A stretch of 64,000 nucleotides of DNA from Treponemataceae bacterium (GCA_963667725.2 CAXXHO010000007.1:59434-123433), one strand, 5' to 3'; shown: positions 595 through 31,545, counted from the stretch's first letter. Program-made: numbers and translations. Notes: generated from the sequence alone by a model not told the origin.

Positions 595-661
595 GAAGAT
601 AAAGCCAGTAGATAGTATTGATATATAGTTACTTCTAAAAGAATTAGCTGTTAAAAGATAC

Positions 662-794
662 GGCTAACACATGCTTCAGCCTGATAATTGCTTTTATCAC
701 ACTTTTTGCAGTCGTCGCTTCGCTCCTTAGCAAAAAGTGCGCCAATCCTTCGCTTCGCTCAGGCATGGATTTAAAGCTTAAGCTAATGTTAGGT
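662..794 (+). repeat. attC site (near-intact)
   Basis: R'' GGCTAAC, L'' GCTTCAGCCT, L' AAGCTTAAGC, R' GTTAGGT; internal arms GCA/CACTTTTTGC and GCAAAAAGTG. Confidence 0.9.
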
Positions 795-829
795 GGACGC
801 GCTTAACGCGCGCTACAAGGAAAGTGAGT

Positions 830-1483
830 ATGATCAAGAATAAGGCAATTATACTAGCAACTAGAATATCCTCATTCATTGTTGTCTTATTGGGCATCAT
901 CTCCATAGGTGGCGGGTTCAAAGGAAAATGGAACTGGTCATTATTCATGTACTATACCGTGCAAAGCAATACTCTCGTGCTGCTGATGTTTGGCTATTTG
1001 ATTGTTAGGACGATTATAAGCATTAAGAACAAATCTGATCTCATAACCAAAACCAAAGACTTCGAAATGGTCTGCATGGTAGACATATTTTTGACCTTCT
1101 TTGTGTATTGGACAATGTTGGCGCCGAAAATGACCTCACTGTGGGAGTTTTCAAACATTACCGTTCATGGCGTAACGCCATTACTATGCATTATTGACTA
1201 CATTCTTTATTATCAAAATAGTAGGTTAAAGTATCGAACTGTTTATTATGCCCTTATCTATCCGTTGCTCTATATAGTTTCCAATTCAATCGTGGGTTTA
1301 CTTGGATATATCTATTACTATGATAGAACAGGTAGGCCTGTACATTTCCCTTACTTTTTTATGGATTATGACAGGTTGGGGATCAAAACCATACCTTATA
1401 TAGCTGGGTTAGTCGTGTTCATGGTTTGCATGAGTCATATAGTCTATGGTATTGATAAACGTATACTGAAGAAAAAGAGATAA
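830..1483 (+). CDS. Pr6Pr/FAR-17a-AIG1-like integral membrane protein
   Basis: Six hydrophobic segments; motifs YYTVQSN, VHGVTP, PYFFMD. Confidence 0.7.
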   Translation: MIKNKAIILATRISSFIVVLLGIISIGGGFKGKWNWSLFMYYTVQSNTLVLLMFGYLIVRTIISIKNKSDLITKTKDFEMVCMVDIFLTFFVYWTMLAPKMTSLWEFSNITVHGVTPLLCIIDYILYYQNSRLKYRTVYYALIYPLLYIVSNSIVGLLGYIYYYDRTGRPVHFPYFFMDYDRLGIKTIPYIAGLVVFMVCMSHIVYGIDKRILKKKR

Positions 1484-1498
1484 TGAAGTAATAGTAGC

Positions 1499-1625
1499 AT
1501 CTAGCACCTGCTTCAACCCGATAATTGCTTTTGGCGCAATTCTTGCAGTCGCTGCGCTCGGCAAGAACTGCGCCAAGCCTTTGCTTCGCTCAGGCGCGGA
1601 TTTAAAGGTTAAGCCAATGTTAGGT
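1499..1625 (+). repeat. attC site (R'' core AGC variant)
   Basis: ATCTAGC..GCTTCAACC ... GGTTAAGC..GTTAGGT; unpaired C in L''; close paralog of the 662 site. Confidence 0.9.
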
Positions 1626-1691
1626 GGACGCGCTAAGGCGCGCCAAGCAAGATACTGAATAGTTGAGCTATTGATGCATAGGAGTATAATC

Positions 1692-2333
1692 ATGTCGGAT
1701 TACTCAAAAAGTGCATTGGAGATCTTGCGCAATCCTCAGAAGACAATGCAATGGTACATTATCCCGATCTTTGTAATTGTCTTATACATATATTATAAAG
1801 AGTTACATGATAAGCACTACAATGTAGTATTAGGGGCATTTGCTTTATGGGGAATGGACCTCTTTAACGAGATATGGAATAGCATTGTTTTTCATGCAAC
1901 GGGGTTTGCTCCAGTGTGGGGCACTCCTGGCGGAGTAGGGAATACTTCATTATTGCTCTTGATTGGCTACAATATAGAAATATCGCTTATGTTCGCTGTT
2001 ATGGGGATCGCCGTATGCTTAAGCTTGCCTAAAGACAAGACAAAGAAGATATTGGGGATCAATAATAGAATATTTTTAGGAATAGGGTTTACTACCGTAG
2101 CGGTGCTTGTCGAATGCTTTTTAAATTATGCTGGTTTATTGACGTGGGAATATCCTTGGTGGAGCAGGCAGGCGCCATGGCTTGTATGGCTTATAGGGTA
2201 TGCTCCATTCTTTACGATGGCATTTATTGTCCATGATATGAAGAAACGCAAGAATCAAATACTTACTTTAGGTATAATACTGGGCATTGATATCATTGCA
2301 TTAATTGTATTTGGAAGTATTGGTTGGATGTAA
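1692..2333 (+). CDS. Multi-pass membrane protein of unknown function (paralog of 26496-27125)
   Basis: Hydrophobic; shares ILR..QWY.IP, ILGINNRI and W.Y.WW with 26496-27125; AGGAG SD. Confidence 0.8.
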   Translation: MSDYSKSALEILRNPQKTMQWYIIPIFVIVLYIYYKELHDKHYNVVLGAFALWGMDLFNEIWNSIVFHATGFAPVWGTPGGVGNTSLLLLIGYNIEISLMFAVMGIAVCLSLPKDKTKKILGINNRIFLGIGFTTVAVLVECFLNYAGLLTWEYPWWSRQAPWLVWLIGYAPFFTMAFIVHDMKKRKNQILTLGIILGIDIIALIVFGSIGWM

Positions 2334-2345
2334 TAGAGAAGAAGC

Positions 2346-2475
2346 TTCTATCAATCGCTTCAATCCAACTCGGCTACTGTCACGGTTTGTGCAAGGCCGC
2401 TTGGCTCCCAGCACAAACCACGCCAAGTTTTCGCTTCGCGCAGGCTCGGATTTAAAGGTTAAGCTAATGATAGAC
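2346..2475 (+). repeat. attC site with ATC/GAT cores
   Basis: TTCTATC..GCTTCAATCC ... GGTTAAGC..GATAGAC; arms GGTTTGTGC and GCACAAACC. Confidence 0.85.
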
Positions 2476-2507
2476 AAACGCGCTTCGCGCAGAGGAAAGA
2501 TCTTCAC

Positions 2508-2951
2508 ATGAGAGTATGGTCATTGCACCCCAAATACCTAGATGCAAAAGGCATCGTCGCGGCGTGGAGAGAAGGGCTATTGGCAAAAAAGGTGCTAGAG
2601 GGAAGAACAAACGGATACAGAAACCATCCTCAGCTATGCCGATTCAAAGAGTGTAAAGACCCTGTTGAAGCAATAACTGCATATCTGCAGCATGTGTATA
2701 GTGAATCCCTTGTACGGGGCTATCGATTCAATGGAGACAAAATAGGTCCACATAGAGAATGTACGGAAATGATGATAGAAGTGACAGACGGGCAAATTGC
2801 ATATGAGTATCGCTTGTTGCTGCATAAACTGAAGGCAAGAGATCCAACTAAATATAATCGGATAAAGAACATAAAGGACATTGAAGTAAACGGGATATTC
2901 AAGGTGATTGAAGGTGGGATTTGTGAATGGGAGAAAATGAAAGAACTATAG
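2508..2951 (+). CDS. Pyrimidine-dimer DNA glycosylase / T4 endonuclease V-like protein
   Basis: MRVWSLHPKYLD.KG..A.WREGLLA..VL.G.T.GY.NHPQL. Confidence 0.85.
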   Translation: MRVWSLHPKYLDAKGIVAAWREGLLAKKVLEGRTNGYRNHPQLCRFKECKDPVEAITAYLQHVYSESLVRGYRFNGDKIGPHRECTEMMIEVTDGQIAYEYRLLLHKLKARDPTKYNRIKNIKDIEVNGIFKVIEGGICEWEKMKEL

Positions 2952-3016
2952 GTTCACTATCCGAATGGGCAATCTCGGAGATAGTTGTGAAGTTGTTTCG
3001 AAGATCAGAAATCGGA
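2951..3016 (-). pseudogene. 66-bp relic of a second copy of the antitoxin gene
   Basis: 63/66 identical to 468-533 by direct comparison. Confidence 0.9.
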
Positions 3017-3030
3017 TAAAAAAGAAGAAC

Positions 3031-3103
3031 GGCCAACTCCTGCTTCAGCTTGATAATTGCTTTTGTCACAGTTCTTGCAGTCGCTGAGCTCGAGAAGAAT
3101 TGC
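3031..3103 (+). repeat. Truncated attC (left part only; L'/R' deleted)
   Basis: GGCCAAC-TCCT-GCTTCAGCTTGATAATTGCTTTTGTCACA matches the start of the 662 site. Confidence 0.8.
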
Positions 3104-3121
3104 CTACCTAAAGGATAAGCG

Positions 3122-3637
3122 ATGAATGTATCATTCCAGCTACTTAAGAAACCTACAAACGAAATAATTGAAAAAATGGTTATATGGAATAATGATCCAA
3201 GCCTAAGGCCTCTTATTAGACCGAATAAATGTGAAGCAGATCTAGAAAAAATAATGACCACTTCTGAAATTGAATCGGGAATGAAGCACAGTATTACGCA
3301 TATAATAAAAATTGACAAAGAAGTGGTTGGAGAAATAGGATATCAGATAGAACCACCTCAGTTGTTTAAGAAAGAAAAAGGAACCGTATGGATATCTATC
3401 ATAATAGGAGAACAAGCAGCCCATGGCAAAGGTATTGGAACTGAAGCGATGGAGTATATAGAAAAAGTAATAAAAAAAGAAGGCTTTAGTAGGATTGAAC
3501 TAGGAGTATTTGAGTTTAACAAGGTAGCACTAGGACTCTATCAAAAGATGGGATATAAGGAGATAGGAAGAGTGAAAGAATTCACCTATTGGAATGGAAA
3601 GATGTGGCAAGATATAAGAATGGAAAAGAACATTTGA
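3122..3637 (+). CDS. GNAT acetyltransferase
   Basis: HGKGIGT motif A; FN..A..LY.KMG. Confidence 0.88.
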   Translation: MNVSFQLLKKPTNEIIEKMVIWNNDPSLRPLIRPNKCEADLEKIMTTSEIESGMKHSITHIIKIDKEVVGEIGYQIEPPQLFKKEKGTVWISIIIGEQAAHGKGIGTEAMEYIEKVIKKEGFSRIELGVFEFNKVALGLYQKMGYKEIGRVKEFTYWNGKMWQDIRMEKNI

Positions 3638-3652
3638 ACGAGGAATGAATAT

Positions 3653-3766
3653 TTCTAACACTCGTTTCAACCTGACTCGGCCACTGTCAAGGTTTGTGCT
3701 GCTCACTTCGTTCGCAAGCCACGAATCGCGCCTATTGACGCCTCGCAGGTTAGACGTATGTTAGAA
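3653..3766 (+). repeat. attC site (canonical complementary cores)
   Basis: TTCTAAC / GTTAGAA perfectly complementary; GTTTCAACCTG / CAGGTTAGAC L boxes with an extrahelical base. Confidence 0.92.
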
Positions 3767-3812
3767 CGGCGCCTCCGGCGCCGGATCTTAAGAATCTATA
3801 TTGGAGTGCAAT

Positions 3813-4346
3813 ATGCATATCAAGAAAATTATTGGCGACAAATGCTATCTTTCTCCCATCGATCTCGAAGACATCAATCTCTATCTAGAATGGCTCAACT
3901 CAGAGGATGTTTACAAATACCTCCTTGTAGGAACAAGCGTGCTTACGTATGAGACTGAAAAAGAAGTGTTGCTTAAGCTTTCTAAAGAACATGTGTATGG
4001 CATTATTGATAAGGAGACTGATAAACTACTAGGCAATGTTGGGCTAATGAGTGTCAATCACATTCATAAAACGGCAGAAGTAGGAATATTTATTGGGAAT
4101 CAAGAGTATTGGGGCAAAGGCTATGGAACTGAAGCTTTGAAGCTTCTTGTAGATTATGCCTTTCGAATATTAGGGCTAGAGAACATTATGTTGAAGACCT
4201 ATGATTATAATGTGAGAGCACAAAAGAGTTATAAGAAAGTAGGTTTTAAGGTTATGGGTGTGAGAAGAAGCTCTCATTACTATAATAATGAACGACATGA
4301 TGATATTTATATGGATGTAGTAAAAGAAGACTTTTATCGTCAATAA
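3813..4346 (+). CDS. GNAT acetyltransferase (RimJ/RimL-like)
   Basis: AEVGIFIG..YWGKGYGTEA; YN.RA..SY.KVGF. Confidence 0.9.
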   Translation: MHIKKIIGDKCYLSPIDLEDINLYLEWLNSEDVYKYLLVGTSVLTYETEKEVLLKLSKEHVYGIIDKETDKLLGNVGLMSVNHIHKTAEVGIFIGNQEYWGKGYGTEALKLLVDYAFRILGLENIMLKTYDYNVRAQKSYKKVGFKVMGVRRSSHYYNNERHDDIYMDVVKEDFYRQ

Positions 4347-4451
4347 GAAGCGGCAATGCAGTATAGACCTTAGCTGCAAGGTAATTGATGAAGAGAATTA
4401 TTTATGTTTAATAGCGCATTAAGCTTAAACGTGTGTTGAAAGGGGGTGAAT

Positions 4452-4691
4452 ATGCTAATTACATTGATAATTGTCGGCGGAATCACAATAATATCTATAG
4501 CAGGTATTATTGGAGAAAGTTTAAGCAAGTCGAAAAAATCTACGTCATCAATAGATGCTAAAGAGATGAAAGATTTAAAGGATAGAATCGCAGAACTAGA
4601 GAGAGTAATAGTTGAGCAAGATAAAAAAATTGAACATTTAGAAACGGATATCTCATTTACAAATAAGTTGCTAGAAGATAAGACAAAATAG
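4452..4691 (+). CDS. Small protein with N-terminal TM helix and coiled coil
   Basis: Hydrophobic N-terminus, heptad-rich C-terminus, GGGGGTG SD. Confidence 0.7.
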   Translation: MLITLIIVGGITIISIAGIIGESLSKSKKSTSSIDAKEMKDLKDRIAELERVIVEQDKKIEHLETDISFTNKLLEDKTK

Positions 4692-4713
4692 ATGTTTAGG
4701 CGGTAATAGAGAA

Positions 4714-4838
4714 ATTTAGCGCCTGCTTAAGCCTGGTGATTGCTTTCATCACAGTTCTTGCAGTTGCCACACACTGAAAGAAGTGCCCAAATCTTCGCTG
4801 CGCTCAGGACGCAATTATAAGTCAAGCTAGTGTTTTAC
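4714..4838 (+). repeat. Degenerate attC
   Basis: ATTTAGC..GCTTAAGCCTG...CTTCGCTGCGCTCAGG...GTCAAGCTAGT-GTTTTAC is colinear with the 662 and 1499 sites. Confidence 0.8.
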
Positions 4839-4923
4839 GGAAAATGCACGCATCATTATCGGTTTTCTTCTCTATGGCGAAATTTTGAAGTGTTAGGCAA
4901 ACAGGCTTTTGGAGATTGAAGAT

Positions 4924-5211
4924 ATGATAATTCTTGTTATTACTCACGAAATGCCAAATATCAAATGGAATGAATACGGGACCATTTTAAAAGAAGAAGC
5001 TAAGGCAATATGGAACTTACAGAAGAAAGGGAAGATAAGGAATATTTGGTTTAGGAAAGATACAAGAGAAGCAATAATAATGTTTGAAGATATAAATGTT
5101 GAAAGCGTAAGGCAGATGATGGCTCAACTTCCTTTAGCTAAAGGGAGCCTAATGACCTATGAGATAATGCCTTTAGAAGCCTACGATGGATATGAAAGGC
5201 TATTTTGTTGA
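4924..5211 (+). CDS. Muconolactone delta-isomerase-like small protein
   Basis: E AKAIW.LQ..G.IR.IW ... LPL motif; about 95 aa. Confidence 0.6.
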   Translation: MIILVITHEMPNIKWNEYGTILKEEAKAIWNLQKKGKIRNIWFRKDTREAIIMFEDINVESVRQMMAQLPLAKGSLMTYEIMPLEAYDGYERLFC

Positions 5212-5224
5212 AGAAAGAGAAAAC

Positions 5225-5338
5225 TTCTAGCACTAGCTTCAGTCTGACTCAGCTACTATCACAGTCTGTGCGAGGTCGCTTCGCTCCCTAGCACAAACTG
5301 CGCCAGCAGCCATTTCACAAGTTAATCGAATTTTCAAT
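5225..5338 (+). repeat. Degenerate attC (R' lost)
   Basis: TTCTAGC..GCTTCAGTCTGACTCAGCTACTATCACAGTCTGTGC...GCACAAACTGCGCC is colinear with the 2346 site. Confidence 0.8.
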
Positions 5339-5379
5339 AGACAGAACGATTCCAAATTTTTCTGCCAAATAGAGGCACT

Positions 5380-5940
5380 ATGGGTAAACTCATTTATACT
5401 GCTTTAATATCACTTGATGGCTACATATCTGATGATTTAGGCAATTTTGATTGGGCAGAGCCGCAGGAAGATGTTCACAGATATATTAATAATATTGAAG
5501 ATAGGATAAGCCTTGTACTGTATGGCAGGAAAATGTATGAAATTTTGTCAGTTTGGGAAAATATTCTTGATATGGGAAACCAGCCAGATTATATTAAAGA
5601 ATACGCGATAGCTTGGAAAAAGCAAAGAAAGATAGTATTTAGTACAAAATTGCAAGCTGTATCGATATCTAATACCAAGCTCATGAAAAAATTTGATCGA
5701 GATGAAATAGAGAGAATGAAAATAGATGAATTGGGTGATATGGGAATTGGAGGAGCAAATCTTGCTTCACAAGCATTTGATTTATGCTTGGTTGATGAGA
5801 TAATGATATTTATCTATCCCATAGTAATAGGGAATGGAACTAAATGGCTTGGTTCGATTAGGAATGTACAGCTTGAAATGATGGAAGTAAGAGAATTTAA
5901 TAATGGAATTGTGATGATTCATTATTCAGTGAAAAAATAA
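5380..5940 (+). CDS. Dihydrofolate reductase-like / RibD C-terminal domain protein
   Basis: SLDGYI, GRKMYE, GGA.LA, LVDE..I...P...G.G. Confidence 0.88.
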   Translation: MGKLIYTALISLDGYISDDLGNFDWAEPQEDVHRYINNIEDRISLVLYGRKMYEILSVWENILDMGNQPDYIKEYAIAWKKQRKIVFSTKLQAVSISNTKLMKKFDRDEIERMKIDELGDMGIGGANLASQAFDLCLVDEIMIFIYPIVIGNGTKWLGSIRNVQLEMMEVREFNNGIVMIHYSVKK

Positions 5941-6034
5941 GAAGCGGAGAGAATTGCTGCCTGGCGATTGCTTCAGCCTTATAAATCATTTGTAAAGATT
6001 GTGCTAGGATTGAAGAGTGAAGCTACGCCTTATA

Positions 6035-6560
6035 AAAGCTGATATTGCATTTATGATAGAGAAAAAGTACGAGAATGAAATAATTCCATCAAAATGTATA
6101 ATTAGTGGAGCAAATTTGAAGGATCTAAAAACAGTGCACAATGAAATAGAAAACTTTATTGCGCTTAAAATGGAGTCTGATTCGCCGTTTGCAAATAGGA
6201 AAGGCGAGAAGGTGTTCGATATTATCCGTATTTGCCCAAACCACTTAGGATACAGGCGTTTTACGTAATAGGGCGGAAGCCAAAATGTATAAAAAATAGG
6301 TGGAACAACATTAATAACCTCATTATCTAGCTTCGGGAATATCTCGTCTTTGGCAATTCCTTTAGGGAGTTATCCATTGGCAATGGCTATAGGTTCGATT
6401 AAAGAATAGGCTTGGACGGTTAATGGAAAAATTGAGGTTAGGGAAATACAGAATATAACCATGCAGTTCAGTCATGACTTTGTAGATGGTGGAGACGAAG
6501 CGTGATTTATTAAAGTACTTAATGATGAACTCGATAAATTAGCTAAAGAAATATGCCGAG
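6035..6560 (+). pseudogene. Disrupted 2-oxoacid dehydrogenase E2 (acyltransferase catalytic domain)-like gene
   Basis: Reads DIAFMIEK...GGTTLITSLSSFG...AIGSIKE*AWTVNGKIEVRE..ITMQFSHDFVDGG..A*F (HxxxDG motif); several stops, N-terminus missing. Confidence 0.75.
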
Positions 6561-6582
6561 CGGCTCTTAAGCGCAGGAAGAA

Positions 6583-7146
6583 ATGGAAAACATCAAATTG
6601 GATCGTTCATCAAAGATTCTCGTGATCGGGACAAGCGGCTCTGGAAAAACAACACTTGCCGAAAAGTTGAGCAAAATGTTGGGCATTAAGAATATCGAAC
6701 TGGATGCTCTCTTTTGGAAAGAGAACTGGACACAATCAAGTACCGAAGAGTTTCGGGAAAAAATTGTGAGTTCAATTAAAACGGCAGAAGGGTATGTACT
6801 TCATGGGAACTATAATAAGGTTAAAGACTTAACATGGGGCAATGTGGATACTGTAATATGGCTTGATTATGGTAGGGTAGTAGTAATGTGGAGGGTGCTT
6901 AAGAGGACTATTGGCAGGATTATAACGCAAGAAGAATTATGGGCAGGAAACAAAGAGACTTTCAAGAAATCATTTTTAGAAAAAGATTCAATAGTTCTCT
7001 GGGCTTGGAATACTTATAAAAAGAGAAAGGAGCAATATTCTATAATGGTGAAAGATAATCCTTATAGGATTAAGGAAATTGTTGTATTGAAAAGTCCTAA
7101 AGAGGCAAAGTCATTGTTGAAGATGATTGAAGAACTAAAATGTTGA
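6583..7146 (+). CDS. Adenylate kinase-like P-loop protein (FlaR/topology modulation family)
   Basis: GTSGSGKTT; IELDALFW..NW; GNY; DTVIWLDY. Confidence 0.85.
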   Translation: MENIKLDRSSKILVIGTSGSGKTTLAEKLSKMLGIKNIELDALFWKENWTQSSTEEFREKIVSSIKTAEGYVLHGNYNKVKDLTWGNVDTVIWLDYGRVVVMWRVLKRTIGRIITQEELWAGNKETFKKSFLEKDSIVLWAWNTYKKRKEQYSIMVKDNPYRIKEIVVLKSPKEAKSLLKMIEELKC

Positions 7147-7202
7147 ATCACCTGTCGTTCTTTGAATATAAGATTTTTAAGTGTGCAGGGTAGGGTGGAA
7201 AA

Positions 7203-7676
7203 GTGGAGTATGCAGTCTGGCTGGACTATTTGGAGCGTCAAAAGAACATGGGGAACCATCATTCTCCGCAATATGTGTTTGCTGAACACTTTTGCAATGA
7301 CAAACAATCGGCAGACAAATTGTATCAATTGGTGATGGATGGAAAGAAAAGGGCAACTACAGGAAGTATATGGGCATATGAACATGATAACGAACCGATA
7401 TTAAATTCTGGAGACCTTACAATCTTGACGAACTATGATGAATCACGGGCATGTGTAATAAGAACAAAAAGTGTAGTCATAAAGAAATTCAAAGAGATCA
7501 CTGAAGACGAGGCGGGAAAAGAAGGAGAGGGGGATTTGAGTTTGGGATATTGGCGAAAAGTCCATAAAGAATACTTCGAAGAGGAATGTAGGAGGATTGG
7601 AAGAGAATTTTCCGAAGAAATGCCTGTAGCATATGAAGAGTTTGAGATTGAGTATGAGAATGAGCGTGGTCATTGA
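7203..7676 (+). CDS. ASCH domain protein
   Basis: LV.DGKKRAT; EGEGDLSL.YWR.VH..YF. Confidence 0.9.
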   Translation: MEYAVWLDYLERQKNMGNHHSPQYVFAEHFCNDKQSADKLYQLVMDGKKRATTGSIWAYEHDNEPILNSGDLTILTNYDESRACVIRTKSVVIKKFKEITEDEAGKEGEGDLSLGYWRKVHKEYFEEECRRIGREFSEEMPVAYEEFEIEYENERGH

Positions 7677-7739
7677 TGTTCAAAGGGAAGCATTCAGAGA
7701 GTGCGTTGCGCGGATGTTTAGCTCGGAGGATTGAAAAAT

Positions 7740-8309
7740 ATGAACGATGAATTGGAATTCCAATCTAGGCAACATTTTAGGCTTTGGTTAACTGAACATT
7801 CACAAGATGGGAAAGGTGTTTGGGTCATCTTTTGTAAAGGCAAGGAAGCAACCACATTGAAATCTAGTGAGGCGCTGGAGGAAGCATTGTGCTTTGGCTG
7901 GATTGATGGGCAGATCAAGCCAATAGATGATGTAAGGTATATGAAATACTTTGCTCCACGAGGAGCAAAAAGTAATTGGTCGGAGAAAAATAAGAGGCTT
8001 GCAGAGGAACTCATTAAGGCTGGTTTGTTCTCAGAGTATGGGTTCTCTGCGATTGAAAAATCAAAGAAAAATGGGTTATGGGATCAGGAAAAGAAAAACA
8101 TCGATCCCGATGCCATAGTGAAAACACTTGCCGATGAGCTGAAAGTGAATAGCATAAAGGCGCATGGGATATTCAGCTCTTCATCGGAATCGAAACAGAG
8201 GCAGTTGGCTAGGTTCTATGCCGATGTCAAGAGTGAAGAAGTCAGGAAAAAAAGAATGATAAAAATCGTAGAGGCATTAATAGAGCGCAAAAAAGGTATG
8301 TTGTATTAA
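7740..8309 (+). CDS. YdeI/OmpD-associated family protein
   Basis: F..WL..H; EALCFGWIDG; F.PR..KS.WS..NK. Confidence 0.88.
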   Translation: MNDELEFQSRQHFRLWLTEHSQDGKGVWVIFCKGKEATTLKSSEALEEALCFGWIDGQIKPIDDVRYMKYFAPRGAKSNWSEKNKRLAEELIKAGLFSEYGFSAIEKSKKNGLWDQEKKNIDPDAIVKTLADELKVNSIKAHGIFSSSSESKQRQLARFYADVKSEEVRKKRMIKIVEALIERKKGMLY

Positions 8310-8417
8310 GCGGAGACACATAAGGGTACTGGAGTATGCGCTTATGCGAGCGAGTGGGAGAATGGCATACAGACTTATTCATATAAGTTTGATAAAAATA
8401 TTGTCAGGAGATGCCGT

Positions 8418-9080: not shown

Positions 9081-9171
9081 ATTGGGCACGATCCATGGAT
9101 AGACTCTTTGGGAAAATGATCGATAATGATAAATCGATGCAGCTAAGAGAGAATTGAAGTGAGGCAGTATT

Positions 9172-10351: not shown

Positions 10352-10371
10352 CGCCGAAGGAGAAACGATTA

Positions 10372-22736: not shown

Positions 22737-22872
22737 AAAAGACGCCGATAGCGAGTCCAATCCGGCGAGGTCAATGTCCTGGTTCGCCCGCCTCGCCTTG
22801 CCCGCGAGGCATAGGCATGCCAATATACGCATTGTCGAATTGGCCAATGTCAGGAGAAAGGGGCTGCGCTTT

Positions 22873-23370: not shown

Positions 23371-23397
23371 TCGCCGCGGGGCGAGCCGGGAGACAAC

Positions 23398-24300: not shown

Positions 24301-24359
24301 AGCGGGAATTGTTCCGCATAAATGCTGGGCGACAATATGTTTGGAGATGCGAAGAGATT

Positions 24360-25142
24360 ATGGTAGGGATATTCTCATGGTATGGAATCCGGCAGGTGTT
24401 TGAAAAGCGCATAAAGGCGATAAAATGCGCGGGATTCGATGCGACTGCGATATGGATCGACGAGGACGGACAATGGGAGACCGATCCTGAAGATATGCCC
24501 AAAATCATAAGGGACAATGGCCTCATTCTCGAATATGCGCATGCGCCGTATAGCCGCTGCAATAGCTTGTGGGACCAGACTAAACATTGGGAGCTCGAGG
24601 AAGAGATTAAAAAGCACATCAATTATTGTTCAAGACATGGAATACCAATTCTGGTGACGCATCTCACCAAGGGATACAGGGTCAAGGAAGCAAATGAGCA
24701 CGGCCTCAACGCCCTAAAGAGGATTGTGTCCTACGCCAAGGACAACAACGTGAGCATCGCCGCAGAGAATACAAAGCAGAATGCAGTCGTTGAAAAGGTT
24801 TTTGCGGAGATAGGGGACAGGGCACTGGGCCTATGTTTCGATACGTCGCATGACAATTTATATAGCGACAGGAAATTTTCGCTTTTGGAAAAATACCACG
24901 ACAGATTGCTCTGCCTCCATATATCCGACAACGATGGGCGCATGGACGACCATTGGATACCCTACCAGGGCATGATCGACTGGAATGAATTTGTCAGGAA
25001 ATTCCCCAAAGAATACGGGGGAATACTTAATCTGGAAATACTCTCCAGGAACAAGGATGACGACGAAATGTCCGTATTGGGAGAGGCGTACGGTACTATT
25101 AGGGGCATTGAGGAGAAAATCGCATCGCGGCGCCAATGCTGA
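24360..25142 (+). CDS. Sugar phosphate isomerase/epimerase (AP endonuclease 2 TIM barrel)
   Basis: A.EN; CFDTSH; LHISDNDG..DDH..P..G.IDW. Confidence 0.85.
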   Translation: MVGIFSWYGIRQVFEKRIKAIKCAGFDATAIWIDEDGQWETDPEDMPKIIRDNGLILEYAHAPYSRCNSLWDQTKHWELEEEIKKHINYCSRHGIPILVTHLTKGYRVKEANEHGLNALKRIVSYAKDNNVSIAAENTKQNAVVEKVFAEIGDRALGLCFDTSHDNLYSDRKFSLLEKYHDRLLCLHISDNDGRMDDHWIPYQGMIDWNEFVRKFPKEYGGILNLEILSRNKDDDEMSVLGEAYGTIRGIEEKIASRRQC

Positions 25143-25206
25143 CGAGGCCGGACAAGCCTTGGAACGCCAATGTTCCCGCTGCGATAGGTTCGAAGGAGAC
25201 TAAGCG

Positions 25207-25776
25207 ATGAATTTGGCCATTACCATAATTAACTTGCTGAATCAGTTCCAAGCTGGATATTACGCCCGAGAGGCAAGCCGCCTCGACGAGTTCATGGAGC
25301 TGTTCACGCACGATGTGGAAATAATCGGAACGAATGGATCATATCCCGGAAAAGATGAATGGTACCTCGATCAGGTTGGCGCGCGAGCGCTCGTGTCGGG
25401 AGACTGGGAAGACTGGGGGGATTTGAAGATCGATTTTGACGCGGTGAGGATTCACGAAAGAGGAAATGTCGGCTGGGTGTCGATCCCCGCGACCGTGACA
25501 AAAATCATAGGCGATGACAACTATCAATCATATCTGGATTATGTAAAAAGCTACATGGATCTTCCAAATATTCCCGCCAAAAACAAGCTGCTCAACATAC
25601 TTCGGGGAGGTACCAACACCGTATTTGAGCTGAACCGAGGGGAGAAATTTGTCTGGCCCATCAGGATAACGGCCGTTGTATTAAATGAAGACAATGGCTG
25701 GAAATTCGCGCAGATGTGCTTCTCGTTTTCCACGATTTATTTTCCTGACGTTAGGGAATTCGAGAAGCTCGCATAA
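25207..25776 (+). CDS. NTF2/SnoaL-like protein
   Basis: FQ.GY..R; IGT...EW; R.TAV.....GWKF. Confidence 0.75.
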   Translation: MNLAITIINLLNQFQAGYYAREASRLDEFMELFTHDVEIIGTNGSYPGKDEWYLDQVGARALVSGDWEDWGDLKIDFDAVRIHERGNVGWVSIPATVTKIIGDDNYQSYLDYVKSYMDLPNIPAKNKLLNILRGGTNTVFELNRGEKFVWPIRITAVVLNEDNGWKFAQMCFSFSTIYFPDVREFEKLA

Positions 25777-25799
25777 TGAAGGCAAGCGCCGCAACAAGT

Positions 25800-25828
25800 T
25801 TGACACCAAGGTCGGCAAGTTGTATAAG
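25800..25828 (+). promoter_or_regulatory. sigma70 promoter in a distal cassette spacer
   Basis: TTGACA, 17 nt, TATAAG, followed by AGGAGG SD. Confidence 0.7.
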
Positions 25829-25850
25829 GCATTAAGGCCAGGAGGATGTC

Positions 25851-26432
25851 ATGAATCCTGAAGTCGATGATTTTCTTCGCAGCGAAAAAAGGTGGAAGGC
25901 GGAGTTTTCGAAGTTGAGGACGATAATCCTCGATTGCCGGCTTGAGGAAGGGGTGAAGTGGGGACAGCCCTGCTACTCGCTGGATGGCAAGAATATCGTC
26001 TTGATTCACGGATTCAAAGAATACTGCGCGATGCTTTTTTTCAAAGGCGCTCTGCTGAAAGACCCGAAACATGTTTTGATCACGCAAACGGAAAACGTCC
26101 AGGCGAGCAGGCAAATCCGATTTACGAACGCTGACGAAATAGCGGCGCTCGAGCCGACCCTGAAAGAGTACATCGCTGAGGCTATCGAGGTGGAAAAGTC
26201 GGGACTGAAGATAGCTTTTAGGGAAACGAAAGAGTTCAAAATGCCCGAAGAGCTGCAGGAGAAAATGGATGCGGTCCCCGGCTTGAGGGATTCGTTCAAT
26301 GCCCTGACGCCGGGACGGCAGAGGGCGTACATTCTGTTCTTTTCCGAGCCAAAGCAGGCGAAGACAAGGGTATCCCGGATAGAGAAGTATGTGGAGCATA
26401 TCATGGCCGGAAAGGGATTGCAGGATATTTGA
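25851..26432 (+). CDS. YdeI family (DUF1801 plus OmdA)
   Basis: KWGQPCY; IHGFKEYCA.LFFKGALLKD; LTPGRQRAY; KQAKTR. Confidence 0.92.
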   Translation: MNPEVDDFLRSEKRWKAEFSKLRTIILDCRLEEGVKWGQPCYSLDGKNIVLIHGFKEYCAMLFFKGALLKDPKHVLITQTENVQASRQIRFTNADEIAALEPTLKEYIAEAIEVEKSGLKIAFRETKEFKMPEELQEKMDAVPGLRDSFNALTPGRQRAYILFFSEPKQAKTRVSRIEKYVEHIMAGKGLQDI

Positions 26433-26495
26433 GGGGGCGGGTCTGCAAGCCTTGCGCGGCTTTTCGGAAAAGCGTGCTTTCCATAGGAGGAAGAT

Positions 26496-27125
26496 ATGGA
26501 GCTCAATCATCCAGAGTTGACGCAAACGGCGCTCGGCATCCTGAGGAGCGGCAGCACCTTCCAATGGTACTTCATCCCGCTTATGGCCTTCGCCGTCTAC
26601 GTGTATTTCTGTGAGATCGAAAAGAAGAATTGGAAAGGGATAGCTTCCGGCCTAGCCTTGTATTCCACGCATTGGGCCTACGAAATAGCCAACGCGCTGA
26701 TACAGCATTTTTCCGGACATGCGCTGTGGACCGTTCCCTCCGGGACCTCATTCTTGCTGCTCGTCGGCGTTGGCTGGGAATTGTCGATGATGTTCGCGGT
26801 GGCGGGCGTGATTTTCTCAAAAATACTTCCGGCGGATCCGAAGGCGGAAATATTGGGGATCAACAATAGGATCGCAATCGCGGTAGGCAATGCCGCGTTA
26901 TTCTCCATCATAGAGATTTTTCTCGCGAAGACGCCGGCATTTCACTGGGTGTACGGTTGGTGGGGTGCCCTGCCGGTGTTCATCACCGTGTACATTCCGT
27001 TCTTTTTGATGGCCAACTTCGCGTACGATTGGAAGCCCAGGACCCAGAAAATCGTGATAGGGTCGTTGGCTGCGGTCGACCTGCTCGCGATGGTCGTTTT
27101 TGCCGGCCTGCTGAAGTGGATTTAG
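26496..27125 (+). CDS. Multi-pass membrane protein of unknown function (paralog of 1692-2333)
   Basis: Shared motifs with 1692-2333; AGGAGG SD. Confidence 0.8.
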   Translation: MELNHPELTQTALGILRSGSTFQWYFIPLMAFAVYVYFCEIEKKNWKGIASGLALYSTHWAYEIANALIQHFSGHALWTVPSGTSFLLLVGVGWELSMMFAVAGVIFSKILPADPKAEILGINNRIAIAVGNAALFSIIEIFLAKTPAFHWVYGWWGALPVFITVYIPFFLMANFAYDWKPRTQKIVIGSLAAVDLLAMVVFAGLLKWI

Positions 27126-27151
27126 CGAAATCCGTCGACACGCGAGGCTTT

Positions 27152-27700
27152 ATGATACCGTATTCCCGAAAAAGACCGGAATTCTCGCTCTGCGGTCTCA
27201 ACTGTTCCTTGTGCCCCCGATTCCACACCGAGGGGACATCCCGGTGCCCCGGCTGCGGCGGATCTGGGTTTAGCCTGAAGCATCCTTCCTGCGGCGTGAT
27301 TTCATGCGCGAGGAAGAACGGCGATGTGGAGTATTGCTTTGAATGCGCCAAGTATCCCTGCGAGAAATACGCGCGGGATGGCGGGAAAGACTCGTTCATC
27401 ACGTACAAAAAGGTCGCCGAGGATATCGCCGCCGCGAAAGCCGACATCGAGGCTTATTTGGCTGCCCTTGGGAAAAAAGAAGCCATTCTCCGAGAGCTGA
27501 TCGCCCGATTCGACAACGGCAGGATGAAAGGATACTACTGCCTGGCGGTGAACTTGCTGCCCCTGGACGATCTCGCCGCGCTCGTCGATGGCGCGCGGGC
27601 GATGGAGGTCGACGATAAAGATTCGATCGCCTCCGCGCTGAAGGAAGGCCTTCGGGAAATCGCGGCCCGGCGCGGTATCGACGTGGCCTTGAGGCGGTGA
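27152..27700 (+). CDS. DUF3795 Cys-rich protein
   Basis: CGLNC.LCP..CPGC..C....CA..YCFEC..YPC. Confidence 0.85.
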   Translation: MIPYSRKRPEFSLCGLNCSLCPRFHTEGTSRCPGCGGSGFSLKHPSCGVISCARKNGDVEYCFECAKYPCEKYARDGGKDSFITYKKVAEDIAAAKADIEAYLAALGKKEAILRELIARFDNGRMKGYYCLAVNLLPLDDLAALVDGARAMEVDDKDSIASALKEGLREIAARRGIDVALRR

Positions 27701-27754
27701 AGACGCCGCTGACGCCGGCATAGGCTGCGGCGCGGAATAATTGAGAGGGGATTT

Positions 27755-28213
27755 ATGGATATCAGGACTATGACCATGGAGGATTACGGCGAGGTCTATG
27801 CCTTGTGGGCGTCGACGCCCGGCATGGGGCTCAACAGCCTCGACGACAGCCGGGAGGGTATTCAAAAGTATCTAAATCGCAATCCGGGCACCTGCTTCGT
27901 CGCGACAAACCAGGGACACATCGCCGGGGTGATCCTGAGCGGCCACGATGGCCGGAGGGGGTTCATCTACCACACGGCGGTCGCGATCAGCGAGCGCGGA
28001 AAAGGCTGCGGCAAGGCGCTGGTGGAGCGCGCGCTGGACGCGCTTCGCGCCGAGGGAATCAACAAGGTGGCGCTCGTGGTCTATGAGAACAACGATATCG
28101 GAAATGGCTTCTGGGAAGCCTTGGGATTCGATCGCCGACCGGATTTGACCTATAGGAACAAGGTGATCGCTGAGCGCCCCATGAAAGTACTGGACCCGAT
28201 CGCGGGACGCTGA
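27755..28213 (+). CDS. GNAT acetyltransferase (YpeA-like)
   Basis: GHDGRRG.IYH; GI.KV.L.V...N..GN.FW. Confidence 0.9.
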   Translation: MDIRTMTMEDYGEVYALWASTPGMGLNSLDDSREGIQKYLNRNPGTCFVATNQGHIAGVILSGHDGRRGFIYHTAVAISERGKGCGKALVERALDALRAEGINKVALVVYENNDIGNGFWEALGFDRRPDLTYRNKVIAERPMKVLDPIAGR

Positions 28214-28244
28214 GCGGTTGTCGCCCCGGTGATGGAAAACTATA

Positions 28245-28514
28245 ATGGAATGTAGGCCCGGCTGCGCAGGATGCTGCATTTATATTTCCATTTCCTCGCC
28301 GATCCCGGGGATGCCTGGGGGAAAGCCGGCCGGGATGCGCTGCGCGAACCTCGATGCGGCCAACCGCTGCAGGATTCATGGAAGCGGCGACTACCCCGCG
28401 GTATGCAGAGCCTTTTCGCCGTCGGAAGAGATGTGCGGAACCGACGACGAGCAGGCGCGCGATTATCTGATTTCCCTGGAAGCGCTGACAATGCCGCCCG
28501 AGCGAGCACATTGA
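28245..28514 (+). CDS. YkgJ family Cys-cluster protein
   Basis: CRPGC..CC...ISSPIPGMP.GKPAG.RC; P.VC..F.P..EMCG. Confidence 0.88.
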   Translation: MECRPGCAGCCIYISISSPIPGMPGGKPAGMRCANLDAANRCRIHGSGDYPAVCRAFSPSEEMCGTDDEQARDYLISLEALTMPPERAH

Positions 28515-28529
28515 GGAGAGAATTCATCC

Positions 28530-29033
28530 ATGAACACATTCATTGACGTTTTGATGTCGCGGCGCAGCGTTCGGCAGTTTTCCGGAGCCCAGGTAAGGCA
28601 GGAGGACCTTGAGCTGTTGACGAGGGCGGGCATGGCGGCTCCCACGGGGATGAACCTGCAGCCATGGTCTTTCATCGTCGTTACTGACAGGCGCAAAATG
28701 GATGCCCTGCGCGAGGGGCTGCCTTATGCGAAAATGCTGGACAAGGCGGGGGCGGCCATCGTCGTTTGCGGCGACCGGAGCGCGCATCATTGGGTTGAGG
28801 ACTGCTCCGCCGCGGCGGAGAATATCCTGCTCGCGGCCCATGCCCTGGGCTATGGGGCGGTATGGACGGCGGCGTATCCTTACGAGGACAGGATCGCGAT
28901 AGTCGGGAAGGAATGCGAGATTCCGCCCGAGTTCATCCCGCTCTGCGTCATTCCGGTAGGCGTTCCCCGCGGCGGGGCCGGCGCCGCGAAAGACAAGTAT
29001 CGGCCGGCGAGTGTCCATAAGGATGTCTGGTGA
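28530..29033 (+). CDS. Nitroreductase family protein
   Basis: RRSVR.F; AAPTG.N.QPW.F; DCSAA.ENILLAA..LG. Confidence 0.92.
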   Translation: MNTFIDVLMSRRSVRQFSGAQVRQEDLELLTRAGMAAPTGMNLQPWSFIVVTDRRKMDALREGLPYAKMLDKAGAAIVVCGDRSAHHWVEDCSAAAENILLAAHALGYGAVWTAAYPYEDRIAIVGKECEIPPEFIPLCVIPVGVPRGGAGAAKDKYRPASVHKDVW

Positions 29034-29094
29034 CCGGGGAGCAATCTGAAAAGACCGTGGACTCGAATTCATCGTGCTGTCAAAGGGGGACATC

Positions 29095-29610
29095 GTGAAA
29101 GAAGTTATGCGATACTATGCGCGGTGCAACAGGGAAATCAACGCGAACATGGCGAAGATCATCGGCGAGAAGGTTGAAAGCCCGATGAGTCTTGCCCTGA
29201 GGGGTTATTTCTTTCCGACGCTGGGGAAGCTGCTGGAGCATATTTTCATAGCCGATATGGTATGGATCAAGGCTTTCGGCACCGTCGACAGCTGCGGGCT
29301 CGATTTCGAAAAAGAGCTCGGGCCGACGCCGGACTATAAAGACGCCCTCTTCGCCGACTTCGATTCGTACCGGAAAAGGCGGGAGGCGTTGGACGCTTTC
29401 ATTGAGCGCTACGCCGAAAGAGTCGACGAGGGTTTCTTTGCAAAAAAGGTCGTGAGGGTGAACAGAAAGGGCGAGCGGACCGAAAAGGACGTGTGGAAGG
29501 CGGTGCTGCACTGCTTCAACCACCAGACGCATCACCGGGGACAGGTCAGCTGCATACTGGACGAACTCGGGATCGAGAACGATTATTCCAACATGATTCG
29601 GATAGAGTGA
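29095..29610 (+). CDS. DinB family protein
   Basis: L.HI..AD..W; H.FNHQTHHRGQ. Confidence 0.9.
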   Translation: MKEVMRYYARCNREINANMAKIIGEKVESPMSLALRGYFFPTLGKLLEHIFIADMVWIKAFGTVDSCGLDFEKELGPTPDYKDALFADFDSYRKRREALDAFIERYAERVDEGFFAKKVVRVNRKGERTEKDVWKAVLHCFNHQTHHRGQVSCILDELGIENDYSNMIRIE

Positions 29611-30221
29611 TGCGGAGAGATGGCTTGAAGGTGAAGACAGCTTCGGTTATTTTGGCGCATCCATATGAGAAGAGCTTCAACCATGCGATTTTCGCGACTG
29701 CGTCGGCGGCGTTGAGCGCGCGCGGAATTTCGGTTTTCGCCCACGATCTCTACGCGGAACGCTTCGATCCGGTGCTCACGCGCGCCGAACTCGGCAAGGA
29801 AGCGACGGCCGATCCTCTCGCGGCGAGGTACATAGAGGAGCTCGTCGCGTCGGACCTGCTGGTGTTCATCCATCCGAACTGGTGGGGACAGCCTCCCGCC
29901 ATGATGAAGGGCTACATCGACCGCGTTTTCAGGCCTCCCTACGCCTACGACTACGAGGAAAGCGCGGCGGGCCTGGCCGAGACGATACAAAAACTGGGCG
30001 GCAAGATAGGTGTCGTCTTCAATACGTCGAACACCGAGGAGCGCCGCGAGCTCGAGTATTTCCACGATCCGCTGGAATATGAGTGGATGAGATGCGTTTT
30101 CGGCTTTTGCGGGATCGAGCGCGGCTCGAGGCGGATGTTCCGGGTCGTGGCGGAGAGCAGCGCGGAAGAGCGGACCGCGTGGCTCGAGCAGGTGAAGGGC
30201 GATATCGAAAGATATCTGTAG
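29610..30221 (+). CDS. Flavodoxin-like NAD(P)H dehydrogenase (quinone)
   Basis: AHP...SFNHA; DLY.E.FDP; HPNWWGQPPA.MKG.IDRV; start may be 29631. Confidence 0.9.
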   Translation: MRRDGLKVKTASVILAHPYEKSFNHAIFATASAALSARGISVFAHDLYAERFDPVLTRAELGKEATADPLAARYIEELVASDLLVFIHPNWWGQPPAMMKGYIDRVFRPPYAYDYEESAAGLAETIQKLGGKIGVVFNTSNTEERRELEYFHDPLEYEWMRCVFGFCGIERGSRRMFRVVAESSAEERTAWLEQVKGDIERYL

Positions 30222-30243
30222 CGTTCCAAGCGCGGACGCTGCG

Positions 30244-30621
30244 ATGGGGGTGGCAATGGCGGCGGTACGGATGGAAAAGATTGAATCGACGCTGCGCCTC
30301 GCCATTGAATTCCGCGCCAGGCTGGCGCGGGAGGATTTCGACGGAGCCGTCGCATTGTTGAGCGACCAGTGCCGCATCGACGCGCCGGAAGGGGTTTTCG
30401 CGGGCAGGGAAGAGGCGAGACGATATTTTGCGCGCCGCGCGGGCGAGCTGCGCGGAACGGCTCAAGAGGTCGAGGAAATTTTCGGGATGGGATTCCGGTG
30501 CATCGTGCGACTCAGGGACGGGAATCGACGGAGCCTTGAACTATTCAAGGAAGAGCGCGGCGCGTTGAGCGAGATCCTGATTTACGCAAAGGACGCGCCG
30601 GCGGACACAATTCGGGGGTGA
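30244..30621 (+). CDS. NTF2/SnoaL-like protein
   Basis: D.DG...LL; GREE.R.YF; start uncertain. Confidence 0.6.
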   Translation: MGVAMAAVRMEKIESTLRLAIEFRARLAREDFDGAVALLSDQCRIDAPEGVFAGREEARRYFARRAGELRGTAQEVEEIFGMGFRCIVRLRDGNRRSLELFKEERGALSEILIYAKDAPADTIRG

Positions 30622-30624
30622 GGA

Positions 30625-30831
30625 TTGGAATTCTTGTGGACATTCGAGAGCAACGAAAAAGCGGAGCCGCTCATCATAAGCCTGCAGAACAAGGCCATAG
30701 CTTTCGAGCTGCAGTCGAAAGGCAAACAGGGGAAGGGTGGCGGCGACGTGTCCATCTACGTGGCGGAAGAAGATTACGTAGTCGCCAAGAAACTGTTGAT
30801 GAAGCATCGCAAGCGGAAGCCGAGCGCTTGA
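30625..30831 (+). CDS. Small hypothetical protein (DUF2007-like)
   Basis: IYVAEEDY..AK.LL; GAGG SD before TTG. Confidence 0.6.
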   Translation: MEFLWTFESNEKAEPLIISLQNKAIAFELQSKGKQGKGGGDVSIYVAEEDYVVAKKLLMKHRKRKPSA

Positions 30832-30894
30832 GGCCGGTCCCGCGGGGCTCGGTTCGGGCGCCCGGCATTCCGCCGGAAAGGGGACATCCGGGGA

Positions 30895-31545
30895 CTAGTC
30901 GCGCGGTTTGCCGGCCGCGCCGAGTTTTTCGCGATCGATGAGCGCCCCTTTGAGCGCGGAGCCCCAGCGGTAACCTCCCAAGGTTCCAGACGCCGCGACG
31001 ACGCGATGGCAGGGCACGAAGATCGCGATCGGATTGGCGCCGACGGCGGAGCCCACCGCTCTCGCGGCTTTCGGACGGCCGAGCGATGCGGCGAGTTCGC
31101 CGTAGGTGACGAGGCTGCCCGAGGGAATCGCCAGGAGTTTTTGCCACACCGCGATCTGGAACGCGGTGCCGCGGAGATGAAGGGGCAGGGAACCGCGGCC
31201 GCCGGCCGGCGGGAGGCCCGAGACGGCTGCCTTGAAAGCGGCCGCCAGCGGGGCGGCAACGGACGAGGCAGGCCCGTCGGCGATAAGGTTCGCGTCGCTC
31301 CATCGGACGGCGAGAGCCGCGAGAAGAGCTTCAATTCTGGGGGTGTGGGAAGCTCCCGCCTCGCCGAGAAATTCCAGGGCGCAGAGGCCGAACGGCGTGG
31401 TGGCGGCAAGCGCCGCTCCGAAAGGGGTTTCCTGGATGGACCAGCGGATATCGAAACCGCGCGCGGGGCTGACTGGTTCCGCCGGCGCGGAGACTCCGGT
31501 CGTCGCAACGACGTCGGAAAAACGAATGCGTTTCATCGAAGCCAT
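30895..31545 (-). CDS. ogt: Methylated-DNA--protein-cysteine methyltransferase
   Basis: GT.FQ..VW..L..IP.G...TYG; ARAVG.A...NP....VPCHRV; GGAGG SD. Confidence 0.9.
   Translation of the reverse strand: MASMKRIRFSDVVATTGVSAPAEPVSPARGFDIRWSIQETPFGAALAATTPFGLCALEFLGEAGASHTPRIEALLAALAVRWSDANLIADGPASSVAAPLAAAFKAAVSGLPPAGGRGSLPLHLRGTAFQIAVWQKLLAIPSGSLVTYGELAASLGRPKAARAVGSAVGANPIAIFVPCHRVVAASGTLGGYRWGSALKGALIDREKLGAAGKPRD

Follow-up and report, generated by a model that had tools for sequence, protein, structure and literature searches.

What becomes of the cassettes at the far end of a chromosomal integron once newer ones have displaced them? The question is raised by a 64,000-nucleotide stretch of a Treponemataceae bacterium (the window; positions 59434 to 123433 of contig C7 in genome bin G000), whose positions 1 to 6039 form, on the + strand, the distal end of an integron array bearing attC recombination sites and extending 21 kb upstream to a candidate attI site and the integrase gene intI. 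Beyond the last detectable attC site, small + strand genes continue to position 30831. In integrons, new cassettes are inserted at attI, displacing older ones outward, and a sequence-only reading of the window had taken position as age and proposed a conveyor whose fixed tail is turned into ordinary host genes along one continuous gradient. The system is a sedentary chromosomal integron of the Treponema type in a spirochaete host, and we hold it to be probable that its distal end was fixed in the chromosome in successive episodes, with the tail ameliorating as it aged.

Composition of the array and its tail

The integrase gene is an open frame of 431 amino acids (aa) without stops (C7:36700-37992), co-oriented with the cassettes (both +) and matching TIGR02249 at C7:37069-37989 with 461.7 bits against a cut-off of 265. 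A GTTAG approximately 170 nucleotides (nt) past intI begins the first cassette and is the candidate attI (C7 ~38160), placed without an attI model for comparison; conservation with genomes G017 and G020 stops there. Between this site and the start of the window lie 27 intact attC sites, in whose alignment AAC and GTT are invariant and the consensus bottom-strand hairpin has 31 base pairs. The intact intI, the candidate attI and the further attC sites were all expected upstream by the sequence-only reading. Flanks orthologous to those of this integron occur in contigs C1 and C5 of the same bin and in G017 and G001, indicating a fixed, vertically inherited chromosomal locus; the integron of G012 sits at a different site, and intI is present in 39 of 69 genomes of the wider family.

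The live array is compositionally flat. In its upstream cassette genes (n = 28), the G+C content of third codon positions (GC3) is nearly constant at 0.26 (rho = 0.35, P = 0.07), and in the C5 array (140 kb, 120 cassettes) it is flat at 0.21 (rho = -0.02). In the tail, GC3 climbs with position from 0.35 to about 0.77 (rho = 0.93, P = 2e-18, n = 40; gene 28245, the remaining one of the 41 tail genes, is outside the fit), with slopes per kb of 0.0172 for GC3, 0.0062 for GC1 and 0.0048 for GC2, third positions being about three times steeper. Because live arrays are flat, the ramp is confined to the frozen part, and a single continuous conveyor with ageing throughout is rejected; what survives of that proposal is a conveyor with a fixed tail turned into host genes, which intI, the 27 upstream attC sites and the cassette homologues described below support. 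Nor does GC3 rise steadily from the start of the array, as had been proposed, since it falls from 0.40 to 0.46 at 830 to 2951 to 0.24 to 0.34 at 3.1 to 5.9 kb. The three cassettes at 830 to 2951 have intact attC sites and stand above their neighbours on either side. One of them is a paralogue of tail gene 26496 (36% identity) with an 86% homologue in an attC-free run at another locus (L095), and these cassettes may derive, by recycling, from a tail that had partly ameliorated.

The ramp is probably stratified rather than smooth. A single step fits it badly and a quadratic acceptably (deviance 44 on 37 degrees of freedom), but a better fit is given by three steps, at about 15.5, 22 and 26.5 kb (deviance 29; P = 0.026 to 0.033 in simulations against smooth truths; P = 0.003 in a Gaussian version of the test), at odds with the earlier impression that there was no visible step. 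The four strata average 0.40, 0.52, 0.60 and 0.75 in GC3 and show no trend within themselves. Spacers are shorter at the distal end, their median being 87 nt in the first block but 29 nt in the last. Spot counts of G+C had been given correctly for the lines at 3301, 5641, 1021, 28021 and 57541, but those at 17.2 to 18 kb span 19 to 33, not 25 to 32, and the distal end, said to equal the host gene fhs, reaches a GC3 of only 0.75 against a flank median of 0.87.

The choice of this flank as host reference follows from the makeup of the bin. G000 is mixed, and C7 does not come from its main organism (G+C of 0.65 versus 0.58 in the main contigs). C7 is collinear along its whole length with C5 (approximately 75% identity) and with C1 (approximately 90%), and both of its flanks match G017, a different genus, at 88 to 91%. 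C7 and C1 thus appear to be contigs from related organisms binned into G000, so that C7's own flank, with a median GC3 of 0.87, should be the proper host reference; the three integrases in G000 are orthologues from three organisms, not paralogues. Contigs C2, C4 and C6 likewise duplicate portions of C5. One tail protein has its nearest named homologues in Spirochaetia genomes. G017 is the nearest genome compared and the sole one of its genus, and its contig stops inside gene 29619; the contigs of G001 and G002 end at the edge of the locus.

Cassette ancestry of the tail and the direction of change

The tail comprises 41 intact + strand genes, called with our own open reading frame (ORF) heuristics. 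The run to 30831 is as first described, although it is not without interruption, a probable pseudogene standing at its entrance (about 5951 to 6582). Against a library of 323 AT-rich attC-flanked genes from C1, C3, C5, C7 and relatives, 12 of the 41 tail genes have a cassette homologue of at least 40% identity, compared to none of 56 flank genes (none of the 28 short ones; Fisher exact test, P = 1e-5); as a benchmark, true cassettes of the C7 array score 12 of 27 in the same test. Median protein lengths are 176 aa in the tail and 171 aa in cassettes. Judged by homology, the tail genes are former cassettes, with such ancestry evident for a large part of the tail, and distal genes do occur as attC cassettes elsewhere.

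Homologues are spread over all four strata. Stratum 1 (6583 to 15474, +) has 14 genes from AAA kinase-like, ASCH, GNAT (several), NUDIX, YcxB, hydrolase, molybdopterin oxidoreductase, metallo-beta-lactamase fold, DUF1697 and AHSA1 families; six of these genes have attC-cassette homologues at 66 to 75% identity. The 12 genes of stratum 2 (15600 to 21942, +) include GNATs, TfoX, M48 peptidase, DUF1801/OmdA, Imm5-like, pyridoxamine oxidase-like, DUF3788, PF06983 and DUF2200 families; genes 15600, 16619 and 18994 have cassette homologues at 61 to 85%. In stratum 3 (22080 to 26432, +; six genes: membrane protein, GNAT, PhzF-like, TIM barrel, SnoaL-like and DUF1801/OmdA), gene 22080 is 80% identical to an attC cassette. 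Stratum 4 (26496 to 30831, +; nine genes, eight in the fit) encodes a membrane protein, DUF3795, GNAT, CxxCxxCC, nitroreductase, DinB, flavodoxin-like and SnoaL-like proteins and a 68-aa protein, with cassette homologues of 45% and 57% identity for genes 27152 and 28530. The families are thus those of membrane proteins and of small enzymes that act on their own, and no toxin-antitoxin family is found among the Pfam matches of the tail.

The compositional shift on the tail branches is directed towards GC. In the 12 tail-cassette pairs, GC3 of the cassette copy is 0.15 to 0.28 whatever the position of the tail copy, 456 synonymous differences run towards GC in the tail copy and 124 away, and both the GC3 gap (rho = 0.90, P = 8e-5) and the net excess of changes from A or T to G or C (W>S) over the reverse (rho = 0.82) build up with position. 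When eight trios are polarised with a cassette outgroup, W>S changes fall at 127 of 369 sites and S>W changes at 10 of 102 on the tail branch, for an equilibrium GC3 of 0.78, versus 34 of 369 and 30 of 102 on the sister cassette branch, for an equilibrium of 0.24; parsimony bias is equal on the two branches, and saturation affects the counts. Cassette-only trios (n = 10) give an equilibrium of 0.31, slightly above 0.24.

Eight tail genes are nested among cassette lineages in small midpoint-rooted trees. Eight pairs combine 71 to 85% amino-acid identity with four-fold differences of 46 to 73%, and such identity beside near-saturated four-fold sites indicates purifying selection; tail proteins are full length relative to their homologues in 10 of 11 pairs, and in the remaining pair it is the partner that is split.

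Decay of attC sites

A covariance model (CM) built only from the 27 upstream sites traces the loss of attC across the front. Sites on the + strand are intact at 661 to 800 (109.6 bits) and 1498 to 1631 (114.4 bits), near intact at 2345 to 2481 (99.0 bits), of a short subtype or in early decay at 3652 to 3772 (58.4 bits), and degenerate at 4713 to 4844 (47.0 bits) and 5224 to 5344 (43.5 bits); the last that the CM detects is a fragment at 5958 to 6039 (22.7 bits, E = 0.0017). To this series, which agrees with the sequence-only reading, is added an overlooked half site. A probable deletion scar at 2952 to 3105 (+) consists of a fragment like window positions 468 to 540, part of an antitoxin cassette, followed at 3030 by a 5' half attC (CM 8.2 bits; 25 bits over model positions 3 to 57 with a hidden Markov model; position weight matrix [PWM], P = 0.005). 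A CM search of the attC strand to 40 kb (E <= 10) gave no site-like match past 5958. Right at this erosion front, approximately 5951 to 6582 (+), lies a cassette gene that is probably pseudogenised, with several stops in one frame in a three-frame translation; neither Pfam nor a genome search recognised its family.

Beyond 6 kb, relics were sought by aligning tail spacers to a spacer library and scoring against shuffles, and they exceed a z of 5 in four spacers, reaching 22.9 kb. An attC 3' half with cassette leader lies at 10930 to 10996 (z = 10, and by alignment) and a degenerate attC body at 16145 to 16219 (z = 5.3), which aligns with the attC of that gene's own cassette homologue. At 21976 to 22079, the cassette leader is kept from the attC crossover to the start codon of gene 22080 (z = 25), the alignment starting exactly at the GTTAG crossover of cassette C5_467275; and 22775 to 22869 holds a degenerate attC body, 3' end and leader (z = 9.1, and by alignment). 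An attC 3' end at 11534 to 11554 has a start-codon offset equal to that of the cassette homologue (PWM P = 0.005 and paired alignment, with a library z of 1.2). All of these relics are on the + strand. The relics at 16145, 21976 and 22775 are new, and erosion is therefore not monotonic beyond 6 kb. Among five fragments named earlier, that at 10947 to 10981 is confirmed, that at 11533 to 11555 is supported and that at 15479 to 15565 is weak (PWM P = 0.03, z = 1.5). The remaining two cannot be told from chance: 4421 to 4441, with P = 0.13 and z = -1.4, and the one near 25165, with P = 0.06 and z = 0.5.

The leader of gene 22080 (21993 to 22060) is better conserved with its cassette homologue than are the synonymous sites of the gene, which suggests a putative promoter or regulator site carried by the cassette. 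The copy of this gene in the C5 tail has a different leader.

Sister species and the order of fixation

If position is age, gene order should be shared with relatives only at the distal end, and this is the pattern found. The sister species L091, whose flank proteins are 89 to 94% identical, is collinear with the window only from 27755 into the flank, as is L092, and stratum 4 orthologues in L091, L092 and L090 have 70 to 97% identity. In its proximal part, L091 holds many of the same families in a different order and at 46 to 74% identity. Contigs of relatives in the probable source sample likewise provide long pieces at 27.8 to 30.8 kb only, among the pieces listed. Since sister species share the distal block alone, the last stratum was in place before speciation, and the other strata were built up independently out of a common pool. 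Four-fold distances to L091 are 0.38 to 0.55 for stratum 4 orthologues versus 0.24 to 0.32 for flank genes, as would be expected if amelioration continued past the species split. The 68-aa gene at 30625 to 30831, which is 94 to 98% identical in the sister species and whose homologues lie close to where the C5 tail (54%) and a run in G012 (44%) end distally, may be the oldest shared member of the tail.

Tails at other loci

Comparable ramps occur at three other loci. At the orthologous C5 locus, the tail comprises 14 genes with GC3 of 0.31 to 0.64 (rho = 0.84), L091 has its own ramp from 0.56 to 0.81 over 16 genes (rho = 0.83), and contig C4 of G012, in another genus, carries a 36-kb run of 48 mostly co-oriented small genes in which GC3 rises from about 0.2 to 0.4 up to 0.8 (rho = 0.79). 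This last run has no attC by profile search, yet contains a full-length attC relic at z = 15. In eight L091 spacers and 10 C5-tail spacers, spacer-library alignment gave none above z = 4. Attention had been drawn to fossil cassettes hidden among apparent core genes, and attC-free fossil runs do exist, in other genomes too, but the tail genes are lineage specific rather than core, save for the last block.

Three further runs (L025 in G015:C55, L095 and L093) are attC-free, co-oriented and made of the same small-gene families, with uniform GC3 of approximately 0.7 to 0.8 and 0.5 to 0.65; they are candidates for fully aged tails. Loci at single tail-gene homologues or lone attC matches (two in G004, three in G006, and one each in G007, G008, G011, G014 and G023) showed ordinary host context. 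Contigs end beside intI at the short intI loci L065 to L067 and L069, and transposon-riddled arrays end abruptly.

The C5 integron site is empty in G012 (L186, G012:C39), where intI is elsewhere and the left-flank genes directly adjoin those found past the C5 tail. The C5 genes beyond 387 kb were considered as tail and rejected, as G012:C39 identifies them as ancestral neighbours. Between the C5 live array and its tail lies a transposon-rich segment (C5:396800-407800) with attC on the opposite strand. Contig C3 of G000 has three attC clusters without integrase (353-360, 503-532 and 1635-1654 kb) and, at 2195 kb, a lone cassette 87 to 94% identical to the family of window gene 3813.

Proposed mechanism and alternatives

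As long as attC sites work, cassettes would turn over and remain AT-rich, in keeping with the flat GC3 of 0.21 to 0.26 observed in live arrays. At the distal front, where sites are seen to decay by substitution and deletion, a cassette between dead attC sites would no longer be excisable and would be trapped. Unselected genes at the front would be pseudogenised or lost and useful ones kept under purifying selection, a filter suggested by the fixation of the same families in separate lineages, among other grounds. Trapped genes would enter the host's GC-favouring regime, and their third positions would climb towards host values, the direction observed, in proportion to the time since fixation, as the synteny boundary supports. 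Blocks frozen in episodes would yield four rough strata below the host value of 0.87, the oldest having been fixed before the split from the sister species.

Several observations weigh against a tail that records age by position, and they are best seen beside the other explanations. The one that survives best, though we think it improbable, is that position is not age: the tail froze at about one time, and a GC-favouring force, for example flank-anchored recombination or escape from a silenced AT-rich domain, grows stronger near the flank. It would account for the lack of a significant rise along the tail in divergence from the nearest cassette (12 pairs; amino-acid identity, rho = -0.26, P = 0.42; four-fold distance, rho = 0.45, P = 0.14), for relics at 16.1 and 22.8 kb that are better preserved than any at 7 to 10 kb, and for spacer G+C, which also climbs, from 0.46 to 0.59. 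Also against strict age order, gene 26496, a 90% orthologue, is displaced in L091, so order is not strictly frozen. Against position as the cause, common gene order and orthologue identity in the sister species are confined to the distal block, the proximal homologues being more diverged and shuffled, and the net W>S excess accumulates along the tail.

That the tail is an island of genes from donors of varied G+C content lying beside the integron, with no change in place, is very unlikely. Some G+C differences are evidently inherited, since the intact-attC cassettes at 830 to 2951 have raised GC3 and one has a homologue at 0.40. In addition, 26 of the 41 tail genes have no homologue among the 323 library cassettes. 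Other observations count against cassette ancestry of the tail: in three other genera, homologues of gene 26496 sit in ordinary host context, most tail spacers are without any relic, and pooled PWM tests for attC ends in tail spacers, which are less sensitive than the spacer-library alignment, are not significant (Fisher P = 0.09 to 0.99). Yet the cassette homologues are uniformly AT-rich at any tail position and the substitutions are polarised on the tail branches, which together largely refute an island; attC relics also lie in the tail spacers, and ramps of this kind, over differently ordered genes, are seen at three further loci.

The reverse direction, in which the tail is a nursery of host genes turned into cassettes that drift to AT, is likewise very unlikely. 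An 84-sequence tree puts gene 22080 in a basal rather than a nested position relative to its cassette homologue, AT convergence among cassettes could bias parsimony, and the origin of cassettes is in general unsettled; but seven other families are nested among cassettes, the cassette branches are stationary and show no loss of GC, the relics carry the deletions and scattered changes of sites that have decayed, and flank genes have no cassette homologues.

A chimeric assembly of a low-GC and a high-GC organism has a negligible chance of being correct, since, mixed as the bin is and foreign as C7 is to its main organism, the flanks on either side match G017 and keep the gene order of the orthologous C5 locus, and for 12 to 29.5 kb the idea is refuted by two contigs of a separate assembly (12001-22177 and 22169-29523) that match the window without any difference, have similar depth and together span all three GC3 steps. 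The separate assembly is probably of the source sample, and this being one sample, it checks the assembly and not the biology; there is no assembly break, which the sequence-only reading had named as a ground for refutation.

Two last points against the fixed, ageing tail concern its generality. The link of the G012:C4 run to the intI of that genome is only putative, and eight other intI-anchored stretches of at least 20 kb (G019, G056 [two], G058, G059, G060, G063 and G069) show no comparable ramp in 2-kb windows. Six of the eight have no attC match by CM, and the three examined gene by gene end without a tail. Tails are therefore optional, not universal.

A wider reading, to which we give slightly less than an even chance, is that the cassette pool of this spirochaete family is a compartment at an AT-rich equilibrium (GC3 of about 0.24) that circulates among GC-rich hosts, and that attC loss switches on a GC-raising force (towards about 0.78 or more). 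AT mutation bias is reportedly universal, and biased gene conversion is reported in bacteria. Several causes could keep mobile cassettes at a GC3 of 0.24 in hosts with 55 to 65% G+C: an AT bias of mutation that neither gene conversion nor selection opposes, damage while the cassettes are single-stranded, selection favouring AT-rich cargo that is silent, or AT-rich donors outside the sampled genomes. In the only widely traced family, the cassette lies on a short branch inside a clade of GC-rich copies and has no AT-rich donor as a neighbour; this single case favours a resident cassette pool. If this reading is true, tails are dated, replicated natural experiments on the maintenance of high G+C content, and they offer selected cassette families a steady path to becoming ordinary genes of the chromosome.

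Relation to known integrons

Lawrence and Ochman reportedly described in 1997 the amelioration of acquired genes, in which third positions are said to shift first and fastest to host composition. As against that classical case, age is here laid out by position and un-ameliorated homologues in the cassette pool are a direct control. Amelioration is usually inferred without its starting material, whereas here the neighbouring array still contains AT-rich homologues and age has a spatial order, making testable the rates of amelioration and whether mutation, selection or biased gene conversion raises bacterial G+C content. A single domesticated cassette was reportedly described by Labbate and coworkers in 2011 in Vibrio rotiferianus DAT722, and fused attC-truncated cassettes occur in class 1 integrons. 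Compared with single domesticated cassettes, the tail shares the loss of mobility or the integration into the host, but it involves about 40 genes in ordered strata, repeated across lineages. For distal cassettes, a fate besides loss would be fixation, site erosion and conversion to host-like genes, in several lineages and with the same families.

Comparisons with published systems refer to excerpts of the papers cited. Gain and loss of intI and shortening of attC have been described for Treponema chromosomal integrons (Wu, Doak and Ye 2013, PMC3607928), which resemble this one in their spirochaete host, an intI that is transcribed in the direction of attI and of the cassettes, homogeneous attC and lineage-specific cassettes; unlike those described in the excerpts, the present one has an attC-free co-oriented tail and a compositional ramp. 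Array maps in the supplements of that paper may bear on novelty. Vibrio sedentary integrons are likewise large and below the host in G+C, but the contrast there is 3 to 6 points (40.7% in the DAT722 array versus 44.8% in the host; Boucher et al. 2006, PMC1382264) and here about 28 (0.36 versus 0.65); the arrays in that account end near transposases, with unrelated genes beyond and no graded tail. Clusters of attC sites lacking integrases (CALINs; Cury et al. 2016, PMC4889954) resemble the tail in holding cassettes possibly cut off from integrase action. They are defined by at least two attC sites with no intI nearby, and so keep attC where intI is absent, whereas an intact intI lies alongside the tail, which has lost its CM-detectable attC. 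By the excerpted procedure, an attC search extending 4 kb past the last site would stop near 10 kb here. Tools based on attC miss approximately 25 kb at this locus and 36 kb in G012, and the integron share of genomes may be underestimated. The literature compared also included excerpts of PMC11023631, PMC8946536 and bioRxiv 10.64898/2026.03.17.712381; no description of an attC-free ameliorating integron tail was found in it, but as it was covered mostly by title and abstract, with subscription journals largely outside, absence from print is not established. The system is a known kind of integron with a replicated, apparently undescribed feature.

Other features of the locus

The array contains two cassette pairs that are 99 to 100% identical, which may be an indirect hint of recombination activity. 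The first two cassettes at attI (L001:8160-9250) are near-identical and without a convincing ORF, and at 290 to 547 the - strand encodes a Phd/YefM antitoxin (PF02604, E = 8e-11) from a toxin-antitoxin cassette that lies inverted there. At its N terminus, the integrase (L001:6700-7989) is extended by a segment that resembles HARP weakly (E = 1.5e-4, short of the family cut-off).

Promoter scans gave promoter-like sites at chance level (46 versus 46.1 expected and 19 versus 14.4), and an Rfam scan gave a tRNA at 49265 only, with no attC family. Outside the scan list, TTGACA and TATAAG separated by 17 nt at 25800 to 25828, upstream of gene 25851, form a candidate promoter picked by eye. The orientation of replication is not readable from GC skew, which is highest (0.24 to 0.38) at window positions 4001 to 11000, just beyond the last attC, where it exceeds that of most of the live array and of the distal tail. 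Past the tail, the host flank (30895 to 34370; GC3 of 0.82 to 0.87) begins with an O6-methylguanine methyltransferase-domain gene on the - strand, followed by EamA, ACT and MATE genes.

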